NCBI RefSeq assembly: GCF_038025025.1
Contig: NW_027117343.1
Location: forward strand, 2,170,001-2,234,000
Source: Phyllosticta citribraziliensis
Taxonomy: Eukaryota
Reading direction: 5' to 3'
DNA: 64,000 nucleotides
Below, in pieces: positions 34,011-53,734 of the stretch. Position 1 is the first letter of the stretch, and each line of letters opens with the position of its first letter. The notes under the pieces are model-generated. The model saw only the letters and a program-made list of their open reading frames with translations. It was not told the origin of the DNA and did not search any database. The translations under genes and the position numbers were made by a program.

Positions 34011-35923
34011 TCACGACTCGGCGTCGACAAACTCCTCCAAGGAGCCCGCGTCCGAGTCCTTCCGCACTATCGTTCCGTGCGGGCGGCCATTCTTGTTAGC
34101 AGCAGCGTCGTGCTGGCCAAAGTCGATGGGGTCGTCATGTGCAGCCGCCGACGGCACCGTCGACGTCGACTGCCTGTGATCCGACTCGCTGTTGTTGTTG
34201 TTGTGCTCGGGTATCGAGAGGCGCCGTTGCGGCGGTTTTTGGCCCGGCAGGATGGGCGCAATGTTTAGAATCTGTTTGGTCTGCTCTTCGGGCGTTGCGC
34301 CGTCACTGTCACGGGGAAGATGTCAGCCTCACTTTCCTCTGCATGCCGGACACGGCGACGGCGATGCTCCCTCTCCTGCACTTCCTCCCCGGACGCCCCC
34401 CGCAGACTCGGCTGGAGACTCACATGGTAGCCCGAATGATAAAGTCCAAGTCCTCCTCGCCCTCCTCCGGCCCACCCGGTCCGCCTTGGACTCGTCGGAA
34501 TAACCGAGGCGTCCAGTCGTGCCCTTCGTCTGCGCGCCTCGCCGCCTCCTCGCGCTGCCGGTCTTCGATCTTGGTCTTTTCGTCCGTCGCCGTCAGCTGG
34601 TCGCGCTGCTTGATGGCCGTCGTGACCTTTTGCCACAGCCGTTGAGACTCGCGCTCGTCCTGCTCCTCGAGCGAACGCACGCGGGGCGGCGTCTCTCGCG
34701 CGTGGGATGCGTCAAACAAGAGTTGTCTCTTGCCGGTCTGCGGGCGAAACGCCTGTCAGCAAAACAGGCTGCAAGTGTCAAATGCGCGACACCTCTAGAC
34801 GTACCTGAATGTTCTTTGCCCACATTTCTCCTGTCCACAGCCCCGAGAGCTCGTAAAGATTGTGGCCCGTTTTTGCGTCTCTAATGTATCCGCCGATGGC
34901 GTTATATGTGCCGCTCACCCAACCTTTCGTCTTGAACTCAATGTCCGCCTCCAATCCCAGCTCCGGACACCGCACAAAGCTGTGGTCGCCCAGCTCGTAC
35001 TTCATCTTGCCAAACAGGATCCCCCGGGCGTACATGTTGGGCTGCGTAATAAAGCTGTTGCCTAAATCAGCAAAACAAACACAACCAACAACCCCGCAAT
35101 TCGAACGTACTATCTCTCATTATGGTTCAGGAATCTCATGACGGCGAGACCCTCCATCATGCTAGCGGCAGAGTTGCCCAAAAACTTGCTCCGCGGCTTG
35201 AGGGTGCCGTCGATGCGGATGTGATGCTCGGGGGCCATGAAGAAGTAGCTCGACTTTGGGGGGTGGTGGCTCGTTTGCTCGGAAATGTAGTAGCCTCTGG
35301 TATTGTCCGGATAGTCCCAGTAGCAGGTGAAGGTCTCTCCGAGGATGGGGTTTAGGGGTTTTTTGACGCCTCTGTCCGGTGGAGGTCAGCAATTTTTTTT
35401 CATTTGTTGTTGTGGTCACTGCTGGAGCGCGTAGAGTATACGTACGGCGGTTTGATGTGCCAGCCACTGAGGTAGAACTTTACGACAGAGAGAAAGCGCT
35501 CAGTCGGGTCTTGGATGGTAGGCATGGGGAGCAGGGTCTCCGGGTGTGCCATGAAGCTGGTCGGGCCTGTATCAGTTTTCGGTTCCTCTTGTCCTCTTCT
35601 ATTCCACAGCGGTACGGAGGCGGGCGGGCTGCACGCACTTGGTTATTCTCTCAAGCATCGAACGAGGCTCCAGGATAAAGGTTGGGAGGGTGATTCTGCT
35701 GAGGTCGGCGCCGGGGCGCAACTGCGAGATGATGTGGGTGAGGACTTGGGGGTGTTAGCTTGAGTAGATGCCTGACAGAGCAAGCAGGCTGGAGGTTACC
35801 ATTGCTCTGCTCCGAGTCGACGACGGTCTCGTCTTCGGGGGTGACGGTTGAGTTGTCGCGGGCATCTTCGGTGGAAGAGCGGTTGCTCGACAGCGAGTGG
35901 CGTCTGGCGTGGCCGAGCACCAT
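34011..35923 (-). CDS. Oxysterol-binding protein homologue, short (Osh6/Osh7-like) class, 6 introns
   Basis: [41 protein letters not shown] signature, [12 protein letters not shown] and [13 protein letters not shown]. The last exon ends ...[10 protein letters not shown]. Confidence 0.92.
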
Positions 35924-36714
35924 GGTTTCTGGGATCTAGAGGGCGAGGTTGGGTTCGGGCGCGGTACTTGTCGAGATGTCGTGGAGGATATGGGGCGGTG
36001 CGACGGGCATCAGGGCAAGGAAGAAGGACTTTGCTGCAGCAGCGGCCGTGGATGACGCGGGTGGGTGGGCTCTCCGGGCGTTGGCTAGGTTAGCGGGGTA
36101 CGGTACTGTGCTGCCACTGACACTGCACTTTTTTGACAGGACAGCACTGACAGATGGCCTACCGTACCGTACCACTGCCACTGCATGCATGCGTCAAAGA
36201 AACACAAGACGTCATGTTTCACTCCAACACCAACAAAAACATCAACAACACCATCGCCCTCGTCGCCCTGCCGCCGCCCCGTCGTCGCCGTCGCCGTCGC
36301 CGTCCTTGACCGCCCGCCCGCCCGGCCAACACATGCCACGGCCACGGCCACGGCCACACCCACGGCCACATCCACGCCCGCCGACAGGGGCACGGCGTCT
36401 TTGCGCGATCTTCAACACCGGCACGGCACTTCTTTGCGCGTTGCCTCCGGATGCCGCCTGCTTCCGCTCTCCGCCCGTTGCGACTCCATCCAATCCCAGA
36501 ATATTCGTATTCGACCACGCCGTCTGCTTTGTTGTTCTCCACATCCCACCTGCTGCTACATGCTGCTGGCAGGTTGCTACCGTTTGACCCCGCGTCCTCG
36601 AGACCCTAGGTACACATGTCCGGGTCTACCCTCGCTAGAAAAAGATCTACCCGAAATGGACACCAGGGCTTCCTATCACAGCATGTGGGGGCTTCGTTTA
36701 ATGAGTAAACACCT

Positions 36715-39700
36715 TCAAAGCTCGAATTCGTCATCCTTTTCCTCATCCTTTGCCTGCCCCTGGCCCAACTGCTGTCTCCTGCGCTTGTAGAACTGGTCCA
36801 GGCACTCCCTCCGCTGCTCCTGCGGCCACCCCTCGACTATCAGCGCAAACTCCGTGACGTCGTCAAATCCAAACGTCTTCGCCATGGTGCAAAACTGCCT
36901 CAGCCGCACAGATTCAGGGGGATTGTGTTTCAATCTCGTCCCCTGCATCTCGTCGCCGCTGTCAAACTCCTCCTTGTCGTCCTCACGGCCAACGTCCTGG
37001 CTGGGCGCAAACACGTGCTTCTGGATGAAGTCGACGTCGTTGTCATTCGCCGCGGCCCTTTTACTGAGACGGTCCTCAATTTTCGACGTCCCAATGACCT
37101 CCTGATTCTCGTGCGTGTACTGGACTCCGATGCTTGACAGGATTGCCTGCACCGCGTCCTTCTTCTTAGGTGCCAGCTTGAGATTTTTGGCCATCTCGTC
37201 GACTTCGCCCTCTTTGATCAAGTCGGAAATCTGGCTCATGAGCGCGTCTTCATCATCTCCAAGCAAGGTACTCTCGTCCTCGTCCTCGCCCACGCCGTCG
37301 ATGCCCATGACCTTGACGCCAGCTCTGGACTCGGCAACGTTGGTCTTGTTGACAATGTCCCGGAGAACAATGTTGTCGCCTTGGTAAGAGAAGAGATTGG
37401 CAAGCCCGAAAATCTCGCCCTTTTTCTCCGCCTTGTCCTGCACACCGCGGAAATATCGGCGCTCGTTGGTCGCATTGTAGCCAATATTTGCCTGCTGCTG
37501 CTTGTAGATTTGGCGGGCGTAGATAATCTCTTCGATTGTGCCCGCTGAGACCAGGCGAAAGACTTCAACATCTCGAGTTTGACCAATGCGGTAGGCCCGG
37601 TCTTGGGCTTGGAGATCATATGCTGGATTCCAGTTCGGATCAAACACGACAACTTTGTTGGCTGAAGTGATGTTCAAGCCCACACCTCCAGCTCTTGTGC
37701 TGATGAGGAACACAAACTGCTGTGGGTCGGCGTTAAAGTCTGACACCTCCTGAGCCCGTTGGTCGTACGTCATGGCGCCATCCAAGTAGCTCACGCTGTA
37801 CGTGGTGGTGGTAGTGAAGAGCATTTTCAGCATTTGAAGGAGTCGTACGCTGTGGCTAAAGACAAGAACCTTGTCGCCATTGGCATACCAAAACTGAAGG
37901 AGCTTCCTCAGGATCTTCCACTTGCCGCAGAACTCTTGAGTAGCAAAGGTCATGATGTTGTTCCGTTGGTTGTACAGATCCTTCCACTGGGTTGGCATGG
38001 CCACCTGAAGATCACTCAGGTCCCTGGATTGCTTCTCGTCCGGATCAGTATTCGATGGGATCAGTAGGGCGACGTGATTCGTGAGCTTTTGCAGGACAAC
38101 AATGGCCGGAAAGACGTAGTGCTGCCACTTTCCTCGGCCGGGAATCTGGACGTAGCAGCACCATCCACGTTTCTTGCGCGATCCGCAATCACAATCTTCA
38201 GTCGATCGGCGGATGTGATCAATGATCTCCGACGTGACGAAATTCTCGTAGGCATCGGCTTGCGTGTCGGTGAGGGGGCAAAACACTGGGCAAGTCAGTC
38301 GACGTCAATCATGGCTTCACAGAAGACTCACCGACTCGGTCGCTCTTCTTGGGCAGTTCGTGGGCAATCAGAGTCTTCATGCGTCTTAGGAAAAATTGGG
38401 GCAACAGGTTCTTGACCAACGAGTTGGCCGTCTTTCGCGCCTTGGCCAGCTGGTGATAGGTCGCATCATGGGCCTGGCCCATCTTGAGGGGATCGCTGAT
38501 GCAATTCTTCCATGTAACAATGCCTCCGAATCTGCCCGGATTGGTCCAATTGAGCAACGTCCACAGCTCCAGGTAGTTGTTTTGGATTGCGGTTCCAGTC
38601 AGGCCGATTCTGCAGAGTGCGTTGATCTCATTCATTGCGTGCGTGACCTCTGAAGTGTTGGACTTGATGGTGTGGCATTCGTCTGCAATGACACAGTCCC
38701 AGTCAATGGTGTTTATGGCGCTCTTATTTAGTCGATAGGTTGAGTACGTTGTCAACACAATCTCAGTGCTCCCGTGTTGGATTGCACGCAGGGCGGCTTC
38801 CTTCGCGTCTGGGGTTCCATGGTAGACATAGACATGCCACCAGCCCCAAGTCTTCAATTCGGACTCCCAGTTCCTCATGAGACCGCCCGGGCAAATGATG
38901 AGCACTCTTGGGTACTCTCGACCATGGCGGCGCATTTTTCGCATGCGCTTTTCGTCGCGCTCATCGCCAGTCTTGCCAAAAGCTGCGGTGAGGAAGGCAA
39001 TTACCTGGATGGTCTTGCGTAAAGCACGGTCAGTATTTGGAAAAATCAGCGGAATATCATAACTTATCTAGACCCATGTCGTCTCCCAAGATTCCTCCCT
39101 TTTGGTAGACATATTTCTCGTGCAGAAACTCGGCCCCTTTGATCTGGTAGTCTCGCAACCATTGTGCTAGGGGAGCAGGAATGATGCCGGCAGAAGTCTC
39201 CAAGACGACGTCCTCGTACTCTCTTGTTGGCTTGCGATCTGGGAAGGCAGGCCTCTCCTGGAGATACTCGAGCCTCTCGTCATCAGAAAATTCAACGTCT
39301 TCGTATTCTGGGGGTATCATAAGGCCATTTTCCCCCATTTTCTCGCGGTTCTTTTCGAACTGTGCTTTGCGATCTTTGACGTATTCCGGGAGTTGCTCGT
39401 CACCAAGCCCCTGCAGGTCTTCGTCGTTGTCGCTGTCGGATCCATAGGCACGTTTCTGCCTCCTCGCTTTCTGGTCTTCCTTGTCTTGGTCAAACACCAT
39501 CTTTGGGTGACTTTTGCGGCCGACCATGCTGCTTGACTTTGCCTTGGACTTTGCCTTGACCTGGCGCGACACTGCAGCTGCGCGTTTTCTCTTCAGAGTC
39601 TTTCGCTGTGTGAAGGCCTTGTACACCGCTTCGGCATCCTCATCATCAGACCACTCGACCTTTCGGGGCTCTGCCTTTTGCTTTCCGTGTCGCGGACGAC

Positions 39701-39895
39701 GCTGCTCGTCCTCGTCGCTTGCGGTTTCCGAGTCGTGGTGGTCATTGGCAATGACGCCTGAATAGCTGATCAGTCTCAAGTCGCTGCTTTGTAAGAGGGA
39801 GGATTACCGTAAACATATTCGTCAACGTCTAAAGTCTGTCTGCGCTCGTCACGTCTGGTTTCGGAATCGCTGTCGCCAACGTTTTCGCCCTCCAT
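36715..39895 (-). CDS. SNF2-family ATPase, ERCC6L2/Rad26-like; 3 introns, the second (39019-39067) is AT-AC
   Basis: LRDYQ, GGILGDDMGL|GKTIQ (Walker A after splicing), IADECH, GLTGTAIQN, LISTRAGGVGLN, QAQDRAYRIGQ, and HENQEVIGTSK (VIGSSK-type motif of the ERCC6L2 group). Confidence 0.92.
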
Positions 39896-42800
39896 CCTGT
39901 CGATTTTCTCGGCGGCCGTGCGACGGCGAGTCGTCGTACGCGACGAACTGGATGCAAAAGTAGCCATGAAGTCTCATGTCGCGGTGGTTATCGGAAGAAA
40001 GTCTGAGGGTGAGGTTGGAGTCGAGACGCGGGGAAAGAACGCGACGCGACATAAAAGTCGCGCTGCTGCAGGGTCCGCCACACAACCCCGCCAGTAATGA
40101 CGACACCCATCCCACTTCCCCTTTTTGGTCCAAGGCCTGAAAGCTCCCTCCATTACCATTGCCATGTACATGTCGGCTTGAATTTGTCCTTGCTTGTCTT
40201 TTGTTAAACTGATTTATTTCACCGATTCTGTTCTTATTCAACCGACCCTCTTTGTGTCGACCAACTAAGTGCCAGTCTTTCACATATTGTGTCGTGAAGC
40301 TGGGGACAATCCACACGTGAATGGAGCAATTCTTCCAGATGTAGTGTTCATTGCAAGACCCCTAACGAGACGTCCCAATTTTGATCACTCGAGAAAATGT
40401 GATTATGGTTTCATTTATAAACTAAACTCTTATGATAGGATGGACAGAGCAATGAAGTCGCGAACGAACAATCAACTCCATCATATCAAAAGACCGCCAT
40501 GAATTCGACACAGACACTTGCCTCCTGGGAATGATTCTTGTCAGTTGCAGCTGATGCAGTACCTTTTGATGACAGGCGATATTAATTAGCTTCCCATTGC
40601 CTTCACAACAGCCCAGACTGTTCGAGAGTGATAGTTCATCCACATCCACGTCCGAAGCTTGATCGCCAAAATCGTGGCATACACAAACAAGGATTCAGCA
40701 ACTTGGATTGTGAATGCTCCATGTTGCCCTCTCCTACATGTCGGTTAACCTGATCAAAGCCTCCCGCGTTTGATGTTCGACAGCACAATTCTCTGGAGGA
40801 TGAGTGCGGTGTAGGAGGCATCCTTCGAATGCTCCCGCTCGGAGACTTTTTCGACCGGGAAAGTTGAGACCGAGACGCCGTTACCTGTCTCCAACGGATG
40901 CATTGTGACACGGCCACCCAAAACGGCCATGCCAATGTTGAAAGCTTGCAGCCTTCGCAACAACGATTGCCTCGGCTTCGGTCTTGCAGCCTTGCTTTCA
41001 GCAGCAACCATTTCGTGCTCGGGGACATATTCGTGCGAGGACTTGGATAGCGTCGACGGCGCACGTAGCGCGTTTGGCGTGTGTTCTAGCTAAGCAGTAG
41101 CCATCCTGCCAAGGTTACTTCCTCCCGGTCTCAAGGCTGCGGAGTCCCGCTGTCTGATTGCTCGGGTAAAAATTGCTCCCCGTGGAATCGTCTTGTAGTA
41201 ACCCGAGTACGACAAGTCCAAAAACTTTTGCTGAGTCGTGACCTGGAGGACCGAGACAGACGGATGAATAATGTGCCTTCGCGTGGACCTTCGAGCTGAC
41301 GTCAGCACTGCGCCTTTGTAAAGTTCTCCATGCGACTGCCAAGATTGCACACTGCTAATCAGGAGTGACTACATTGAGGCCGTTTTGCGAGGCAACGTTG
41401 AGCTGAAATTGCCAGGGTTTGAGAGTAAGGATGGAGGGAGTCGGAAGCCGCTTTGTTTCGGATGGTTTGATGCTTGCGTGGACAGCAAAGGCTTCAATTT
41501 GACTCTTGCTCTTACCAACCATACTGGCTCAGTAACTCATGTCATTGCGGGTGAAGGGGATGGTTTCGACTGCCGGTCTTCGAAAGCCGAGCAAAGGCTT
41601 GATGTACCAGAATTTCGGAGCCTAGAAGAATTACCAGCGGCTGATGAAGAATTAGCTTCAAGGAGAGATCGACTGTGATGCCTGCCCAAAGTTAGCAAGC
41701 TGGTATAAGATGTAGAGAAAATGCCGCAGGTTTGCTTCTGGCGACTGCTCGCATCTTTCGATGCCATTGTATGCGTCGATACAATCTATGCAACATGGTC
41801 GGCCCGGGCCGGGATGCCGGTAGGGGTTTCCGTCCGAGACATCGAGACACTGGTGTTGGCAGTTTGGCTCCGTGTCTCGGCTCTGCGAGCAACACAAGAT
41901 TTCTGTGCAGATCAGGTGCATGACGGGCGGGTTCCACGAGGCCAGCCGAGTCTCACGGATCCGAGGGCTGCAGTCGCACAGATTGCAAAGGCACAGCTCG
42001 ATGCCACCTCTTCAACCTCGCGAGGCTGACGCGCACAAACCTGAGATTTCGACTCGTGGGGGATGAAGGAAGACTGGTGAATGCTCCGGACTTGTGGTTG
42101 CCAAACGAGAAAGGTGATACCAATGTCATCCATGTCGGATAAACAGCCACAGGTGTCAGTCATGCGAAACCAGCACGGACGAAAAGCACAGGCAGGCTCC
42201 AATTCAACGCATGTTGCGGTAACATTTTTGGTTGGGCATCGATTGAATTGTGCAGACTCGGAGCCTCGAAGTGGACGGCAGGCAGTCCGAGGAGTTTACG
42301 ATTCCCGAACGAGTCGGCAGCCAAAGATGCCCACTGCTGATAGGGTAGAAGAGCAGCAATTGTGTCAATCTCGTGATGTTGATTGGTCGGTATTTCGTGC
42401 TCGAGTCGTTTTGCGTTGAGTGGGACCAGTAGGAAAAGCAATGGATCCAGGGCAGACGCTCGCGTGGAGCGCCACACGCAACCTACCGCTAAGTGTGGCA
42501 TTACGATCCAGTACGTGTATTGGTGGAGGCGACGCAGGCCAAGCCGTCCTGAGGGTGGCCTGGCGGAGTAGTGGCCCAACGAGGGGAGCGGAATGTGGTG
42601 GTTATCCACTGCCTTGCACGTGGAAAGCGGAAAAAGGCATGTCCGAGGTCAGGTTACTGTACGAGGGGCCGTTGGAGGGATTGCCTCGTTACATATCCAT
42701 GGTACCCGGGAAGAGAAAGAGATGTGGCTGATGAGCGTCGATGGACGAGGGCGACTGGAGCCGGGGACCAGTGGCCAGAGCAAGAAGATGGCGTGGCTTG

Positions 42801-46050: not shown

Positions 46051-46122
46051 AGCTGCGTGGCGCAGCGGAAGCGCGCCGGGCTCATAACCCGGAGGACACT
46101 GGATCGAAACCAGTCGCAGCTA
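46051..46122 (+). tRNA. Initiator tRNA-Met (CAT), intronless
   Basis: Cloverleaf with acceptor AGCTGCG/CGCAGCT (A1:U72), anticodon arm CCGGG-CTCATAA-CCCGG and T-loop ATCGAAA (A54/A60), all eukaryotic initiator hallmarks; T-rich run downstream. Confidence 0.96.
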
Positions 46123-53633: not shown

Positions 53634-53734
53634 GCCCGGCTAGCTCAATCGGTAGAGCGTGAGACTCTTACTGGTTCTACATGTCAGAAAAAGAGGTTAT
53701 CTCAAGGCTGCGGGTTCGACCCCCGCGTTGGGCT
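53634..53734 (+). tRNA. tRNA-Lys (CTT) with a 28-nt intron (53671-53698)
   Basis: Acceptor GCCCGGC/GTTGGGC; D-arm GCTC..GAGC; anticodon stem TGAGA/TCTCA with CTT at 53667-53669; canonical 37/38 intron containing AAGAG, complementary to the anticodon loop; TTCGA T-loop; T-runs downstream. Confidence 0.95.

Follow-up and report, generated by a model that had tools for sequence, protein, structure and literature searches.

U2-type AT-AC introns form a rare class, with 24 members among about 610,000 introns of five animal and plant genomes (Sheth et al., 2006, PMC1557818), and AT-AC introns are reported to be rarer still in fungal annotations (PMC7072748). The rule given by Sheth et al. for assigning an AT-AC intron to this class is the fit of its donor to the U2 consensus (PMC1557818), the known donor consensus being /ATAAGT, as opposed to /ATATCCTT in the U12 class (PMC5029451). 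In this study, we describe an AT-AC intron of 49 nucleotides (nt) in a stretch of 64,000 nt of Phyllosticta citribraziliensis DNA, hereafter called the window (assembly GCF_038025025.1, contig NW_027117343.1, positions 2,170,001 to 2,234,000 of the forward strand). The intron lies on the minus strand and interrupts the ATP-binding loop (P-loop or Walker A motif) of an ERCC6L2-like SNF2 ATPase. In our judgement it is very probably a constitutive U2-type ('type II') AT-AC intron of the Phyllosticta gene, derived from a GT-AG intron, and its effect is mis-annotation rather than regulation.

The Phyllosticta intron is similar to the type II introns of the animal genes SCN4A and SCN5A in its AT-AC ends, its /ATAAGT donor and its ordinary branch site (PMC1557818, PMC5029451), and in both cases the two ends are conserved among related species (PMC5029451, PMC1557818). 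Unlike those introns, it belongs to a filamentous ascomycete, a member of a phylum reported to be without a minor spliceosome. It also differs in its length of 49 nt, its fungal branch site (CTGAC) and the absence of a long polypyrimidine tract. In addition, dependence on the major spliceosome was established by experiment for the SCN genes, whereas for Phyllosticta it is read from sequence signals. The engineered yeast introns of Parker and Siliciano (1993, cited in PMC5029451) had the same compensating pair of end nucleotides, were U2-type and were spliced in a fungus without a minor spliceosome; however, they were made in the laboratory, while the Phyllosticta intron is natural, apparently fixed in the genus and placed in an essential P-loop codon. 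Another natural ascomycete AT-AC junction is the event nested in the RPL30 intron of Saccharomyces cerevisiae, which is described as accounting for 1-2% of transcripts, as unlike /ATAAGT and as having a mechanism that was left open (PMC5029451). In contrast, the Phyllosticta junction has the /ATAAGT consensus and is the only route to a functional protein. Xylanase genes of filamentous fungi have also been hypothesised to contain AT-AC II introns (PMC1557818); these share the type of host and differ in the gene family. With the U12-type AT-AC introns only the terminal dinucleotides are common, the U12 donor and branch consensus sequences being absent from the Phyllosticta intron.

The 49-nt intron and its removal from the transcript

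On the minus strand (39100-38990), exon 2 ends with ...GAC GAC ATG GGT CTA G, which is followed by the intron, ATAAGT...ACTGACCGTGCTTTAC, and then by GC AAG ACC ATC CAG. The intron thus splits the second P-loop Gly codon behind its first base (DDMGL|GKT). Removal of the 49 nt gives DDMGLGKTIQ, while their retention gives ...GDDMGLDKL followed by an in-frame stop three codons into the intron (ORF 39057..39803). All GT-AG, GC-AG and AT-AC pairs enclosing 35 nt or more were enumerated, provided that the first base lay at 39100-39041 and the last one at 39045-38986. No GT-AG or GC-AG pair in the range 39100-38986 kept the frame open; seven AT-AC pairs did so, and GLGKT was restored by the pair 39067/39019 only. 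The wider GT-AG pairs found in public mis-models were considered as candidates and rejected, given that they delete 14-16 residues including GLGKT.

The coding sequence (CDS) joined by AT-AC splicing has 1035 codons without internal stops and is identical to a public P. citribraziliensis protein (P0001; XP_066655641.1 / KAK7537490.1). The AT-AC junction is, in consequence, already embedded in the public RefSeq annotation. In the joined protein GLGKT is found at residue 282, and it is invariant among 40 aligned orthologues. Pfam identified SNF2-rel_dom (PF00176, E 2.3e-41) in exon 3, and Helicase_C (PF00271, E 4.5e-25), VIGSSK (PF14773, E 6.5e-24) and the ERCC6L2-type ribbon-helix-helix domain RHH_ERCC6L2 (PF25806, E 5.8e-27) in exon 4.

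These data agree with what the initial annotation had read from the sequence. It had quoted a 49-nt AT-AC intron at 39019..39067, and the minus-strand letters are as it gave them; the label of the host gene as ERCC6L2-like is borne out by the four Pfam domains, and its statement that the intron splits the Walker A motif holds, GLGKT being intact only after AT-AC removal. The in-frame stop that it predicted upon retention (..LDKL*) appears in the ORF named above, and the enumeration of pairs confirmed that nearby GT/AG pairs are unable to keep both frame and motif. It had also claimed that all other introns traced in the window were GT-AG, which stands for the two other introns of the host gene, the sole ones checked.

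Evidence at the transcript level was provided by record 1 of run X1, a contig of 4286 nt (depth 1178) with no mismatches to the window. It aligned in the blocks 36500-38285, 38332-39018, 39068-39756 and 39807-40000, separated by exact skips of 46, 49 and 50 nt. The 49-nt skip ends in GT..AT on the plus strand, which corresponds to AT..AC on the gene strand, and its placement is unambiguous ('both' = 0). Three precise skips of intron size are the signature of cDNA; in the sequencing record of X1 the label RNA is a guess, and no run is recorded as RNA for this stretch. The use of the junction 39068^39018, anticipated in the initial annotation, is seen directly in this contig, which skips the intron exactly. 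Contigs from a relative with 90-95% identity (X6, record 17) looked genomic and were gap-free through the intron region, and no conclusion was drawn from them.

With respect to the spliceosome class, donor positions -2 to +6 matched AG|GTAAGT in 7/8 cases, the sole difference being at +1, versus 4/8 for the U12 consensus /ATATCCTT, which is too few for a U12 5' splice site. The branch A is 11 nt from the last base of the intron (CTGAC), as compared with 12 nt in intron 1 (CTGAT) and 9 nt in intron 3 (GACTGAC), and the length of 49 nt is close to the 50 and 46 nt of these two GT-AG introns of the same gene. Accordingly, the earlier description of a U2-type rather than U12-type donor, an ordinary CTGAC branch motif and a length like that of neighbouring introns was maintained. 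The AT and AC ends, the /ATAAGT donor, the ordinary branch site and the use of the junction in vivo, the latter from contigs of one run, are those of the U2-type AT-AC class.

The way in which such an intron would be spliced can be proposed from these signals. Because ATAAGT differs from GTAAGT at +1 only, the donor would be recognized by the major spliceosome through normal U1/U6 pairing. The ordinary CTGAC branch site would then be used with normal U2 recognition, and the second step would be completed with the first-base A and the last-base C together substituting for the usual G-G contact between the intron ends. Compensation between a first A and a last C was demonstrated with the engineered yeast introns mentioned above (Parker and Siliciano, 1993, cited in PMC5029451). 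The premise of the initial annotation that filamentous ascomycetes are held to be without the U12 spliceosome is in agreement with a survey of more than 3000 genomes, in which no convincing minor introns and the loss of most minor small nuclear RNAs (snRNAs) are reported for Ascomycota (PMC10639083).

Conservation in Phyllosticta and the intron site in other fungi

The comparison within the genus was made with the clusters around the four best matches, which comprised 16 NCBI models from six Phyllosticta species. The motif DDMGLGKT was present in ten of them (P0001, P0004, P0121, P0123, P0124, P0126, and P0134-P0137). The remaining six, distributed among four of the six species, are wrong at the site and show three different modes of failure. 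In P0002, from a different assembly contig of P. citribraziliensis, DDM is followed at once by AFGKT; in P0122 (P. citrichinensis) and P0133 (P. paracitricarpa), HEKY is joined to TIQ; and P0003, P0125, and P0127, all of P. capitalensis, read DDM-ADRSS-RKTIQ. Failures of this kind would not be expected from a GT-AG intron. The prediction that gene finders would mis-model this site was therefore a correct one, since 6/16 public Phyllosticta models lose or corrupt the P-loop.

The P. capitalensis mis-models are informative as regards the intron itself, given that in them its 3' part is read in frame. The residues ADR equal (G)CTGACCGN, and therefore the branch motif appears to be kept; likewise, the Arg before Lys-Thr (C|GN) implies that the last intron base is C. 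At the other end, the Logan ORF fragment P0128, of the P. capitalensis cluster, ends in ...GDDMGLDKS, and its Asp (G|AY) implies an A as the first intron base. Judging from these translations, the AT-AC intron is fixed across the genus, and is neither an assembly error nor a trait of a single strain. The conservation at orthologous loci, for which the initial annotation had proposed an alignment, thus holds across Phyllosticta as far as translations can tell.

Outside the genus, two proteins are uninterrupted through DDMGLGKT. P0005, from a contig of 30.6 kb, is 97% identical to a Lasiodiplodia theobromae protein, and of the named proteins compared, those of Botryosphaeriaceae are closest to P0011 (77-80%). 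P0005 and P0011 both show read-through of intron 3 after ...SDRV (SDRV|GK...), and therefore these Botryosphaeriaceae-like relatives would share intron 3 with Phyllosticta and have no intron 2.

A metagenome scan gave 52 loci, of which 43 covered the site of intron 2; the site was uninterrupted in 40/43, although one of the two search patterns (LGDDMGLG) is biased to uninterrupted genes. Two of the three interrupted loci, with 33-39% identity, have a GT-AG intron whose position is shifted 3 nt downstream, into the Lys codon (L046, 3207-3290; L050, 79-150). The third one (L052, 3189-3320; 39% identity) presents an interruption of 102 nt exactly at the Phyllosticta site (CTA G|...|GT AAA ACA). 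In this locus, frame and GLGKT are kept only with the ends GT..CA or TA..AG, while a plain GT-AG intron would be of 103 nt and would break the frame. Either a further non-canonical intron occupies the site or the contig has an error of 1 nt. As a separate observation, intron 3 (38286-38331, minus strand) is absent in all 40 metagenome loci covering its site, and could be a marker of the order Botryosphaeriales.

Short proteins similar to exon 2 (n = 54) were also compared. Forty of them read through the motif (39 strictly, plus P0181 with GTGKT), 11 break off within GDDMG(LG) or right behind it, and in the last three the motif is missing. Four of the 11 (P0138, P0147, P0176, and the ambiguous P0140) show GDDMGLG followed by unrelated residues. 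In the case of P0138, P0147, and P0176, this fits an intron starting with G at the exact Phyllosticta site, which would be the only canonical reading. The donor of P0138 would be GTATGT, and its closest named relative among those compared is Lambiella, a lichen-forming fungus. The remaining fragments that stop point to introns located one to three codons upstream.

P0030, P0072, P0117, P0139, P0165, P0168, P0172-P0174, P0178, L046, and L050 are all interrupted no more than about 15 nt away from the P-loop codons. In many fungi these interruptions fall within or after the Met codon, within the first or the second Gly codon, or within or after the Lys codon, and close relatives are often without the intron. 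The pattern suggests a hot spot for the gain, loss or sliding of introns, as judged from read-through translations except in L046 and L050.

Introns thus appear to recur at the P-loop codons of this gene family, and the Phyllosticta AT-AC intron would most likely go back to a GT-AG intron in this position that underwent two substitutions. In a check for an introner-like or repeat origin, no other copies of the intron were found in the 64-kb window, where exact matches did not exceed 11 bases.

Alternative explanations and significance

Several other explanations of the AT-AC junction must be considered. That it belongs to a U12-type intron, removed by a minor spliceosome, we regard as extremely improbable. 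In U12 introns a TCCTTAAC-like branch site is expected some 10-15 nt upstream of the 3' end. The Phyllosticta intron has none at a workable distance; the best match (6/8) covers the last 8 intron bases and therefore could not function there. The terminal dinucleotides are indeed those described for most U12 AT-AC introns (PMC7072748), but the donor departs from /ATATCCTT at half of its positions, and no minor introns are reported from Ascomycota in the survey already cited (PMC10639083). Additionally, Rfam detected no minor snRNA in the 64-kb window, its only matches being two tRNAs; this is a weak argument, as it says nothing beyond the window. Hardly more credible is a non-spliceosomal removal, either by an endonuclease and a ligase, as in HAC1, or by self-splicing. 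Non-canonical ends would be compatible with it, and the same question was raised for the yeast RPL30 event (PMC5029451), but the intron has the full set of U2-type donor and branch signals. Moreover, the intron and its flanks fold worse than 200/200 shuffled sequences (z = +2.24), with no hairpins at the boundaries, and this absence of a notable fold argues against a structure-guided cut. Two single-base errors would suffice to convert the ends of a GT-AG intron into those observed; nevertheless, we assign a negligible probability to an artefact of sequencing or assembly at both ends or to a dead gene. The X1 contig has no mismatches on both flanks, independent annotations and assemblies of four species fail in ways unlike those of a GT-AG intron, and the P. 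capitalensis fragments have A first and C last. As for a dead gene, this one is expressed and encodes an intact protein of 1035 amino acids with all four Pfam domains.

The initial annotation had also proposed that the intron could act as a splicing-limited switch, a proposal that the present data do not support. According to this idea, an inefficient second step would make splicing rate-limiting, and retention (DKL*) would tune the repair ATPase, for instance after DNA damage. The stop that retention brings after three codons and the non-canonical ends kept across six species are in its favor, and so is the yeast RPL30 event, which as a minor isoform (1-2%) illustrates that AT-AC splicing can be inefficient (PMC5029451). 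Against it, the sole transcript contig has all three introns removed, and X1 yielded no form with the intron retained, even though contigs drop rare forms; the donor and the branch site are otherwise near-consensus; and the nearest outgroup is without an intron at the site. With regard to conservation, keeping both ends is expected also without a regulatory role, because either end, if reverted alone, would leave a worse combination than the present pair. We therefore consider regulation improbable, if somewhat less so than the three explanations above, and the same low likelihood is given to its evolutionary version, in which a genus-fixed P-loop AT-AC intron derived from a GT-AG intron would have been kept as a condition-dependent gate on ERCC6L2-like activity through a slow second step. 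If it were true, it would be a natural and evolutionarily tested case in which compensation between first and last nucleotides is used for regulation.

The interpretation as a constitutive U2-type intron of GT-AG ancestry also has points to its detriment. The junction 39068^39018 is shown by X1 alone, X2 and X3 having no cover of 39019-39067, and X1 may be the same data behind P0001, in which case the contig and the protein would not be independent support. Contigs give no splicing efficiency, and 'constitutive' means here that the assembled form is spliced and nothing more. The pattern ATAAGT-N(15-45)-CTRAC has one match in the window versus 0.58 expected, and at least one match occurs in 45/100 shuffles; taken by itself, the signal pattern does not exceed chance and is not significant. 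Because of this, the reality of the intron rests on its coding context, the transcript contig and the identity with the public protein. The absence of a minor spliceosome in P. citribraziliensis is reported from literature on Ascomycota as a whole, and the dependence on U1, U2, U4, and U6 is predicted from the signals of the intron. For the other species, the evidence of AT-AC ends consists of protein models and read-through fragments, not DNA. It is assumed as well that the Logan, ENA and JGI metagenome proteins are unspliced ORF calls, an assumption which is supported by P0128-P0132, P0005, and P0011, all of which end in intron read-through. Finally, we infer the GT-AG ancestry from translations of distant fungi, and a separate gain in the Phyllosticta lineage is possible as an alternative origin, because the nearest, Botryosphaeriaceae-like outgroup has no intron here.

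As for novelty, that implied by the initial annotation has to be lowered, since the RefSeq protein is the AT-AC-spliced CDS and the U2-type AT-AC class has been described (PMC1557818). Within the literature library searched, no paper was found that combines Phyllosticta and AT-AC, and to that extent the intron is not described in print. The intron is a new and well-documented addition to this rare known class, and not a new kind of biology. It provides a clean, transcript-supported and natural case of an AT-AC intron of the major spliceosome in a filamentous ascomycete, apparently genus-wide, and a natural substrate for studying the pairing of intron ends in the second splicing step in fungi. 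It also concerns the quality of annotations, given that models in which a DNA-repair enzyme loses its ATP-binding loop, or has it corrupted, would mislead any comparative or functional reading.

Gene coordinates and other features of the window

The organization of the ERCC6L2-like gene is provided in Table 1.

Table 1. Exons, introns and splice signals of the ERCC6L2-like gene, in window positions.
Feature	Position	Strand	Length and details	Basis
Exon 1	39808..39967	-	160 nt; ATG 39967-39965	Sequence, X1 contig, joined CDS = P0001
Intron 1, GT-AG (GTAATC...CTGAT...CAG)	39758..39807	-	50 nt	X1 skip, ends CT..AC on + strand
Exon 2	39068..39757	-	690 nt; last base is base 1 of the second Gly codon in the P-loop	
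5' splice site ATAAGT, preceded by exonic AG	39062..39067	-		
Intron 2, AT-AC	39019..39067	-	49 nt, phase 1	Sequence and X1 contig skip
Putative branch site CTGAC	39029..39033	-	Branch A 39030, 11 nt before last intron base	Inferred
3' splice site AC	39019..39020	-	First AC downstream of branch site	
Exon 3, SNF2 N-lobe	38332..39018	-	687 nt; GC AAG ACC... = (G)KTIQVIAFL...	
Intron 3, GT-AG (GTGAGT...GACTGAC...CAG)	38286..38331	-	46 nt	X1 skip
Exon 4 including stop codon; Helicase_C, VIGSSK, RHH_ERCC6L2	36715..38285	-		

Upstream of the gene, an ATG located 10 nt before the start codon and in another frame opens an ORF of 42 codons (MRLHGYF..., 39977-39849, minus strand). It overlaps the main start codon and lies within the transcript contig, which reaches 40000, so that it is a possible overlapping upstream ORF. 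At the opposite end, the X1 contig runs 930 nt past 36500, so that about 1.1 kb of it follows the stop codon (36715). In this direction, the same strand carries an oxysterol-binding-protein-like gene (ORFs 34778-35385), and the extension could correspond either to a long 3' untranslated region or to merged transcripts of neighbouring genes.

The two tRNA genes revealed by Rfam are both on the plus strand, at 46051-46122 and 53634-53734. The second one probably contains an intron, because it is 101 nt long.

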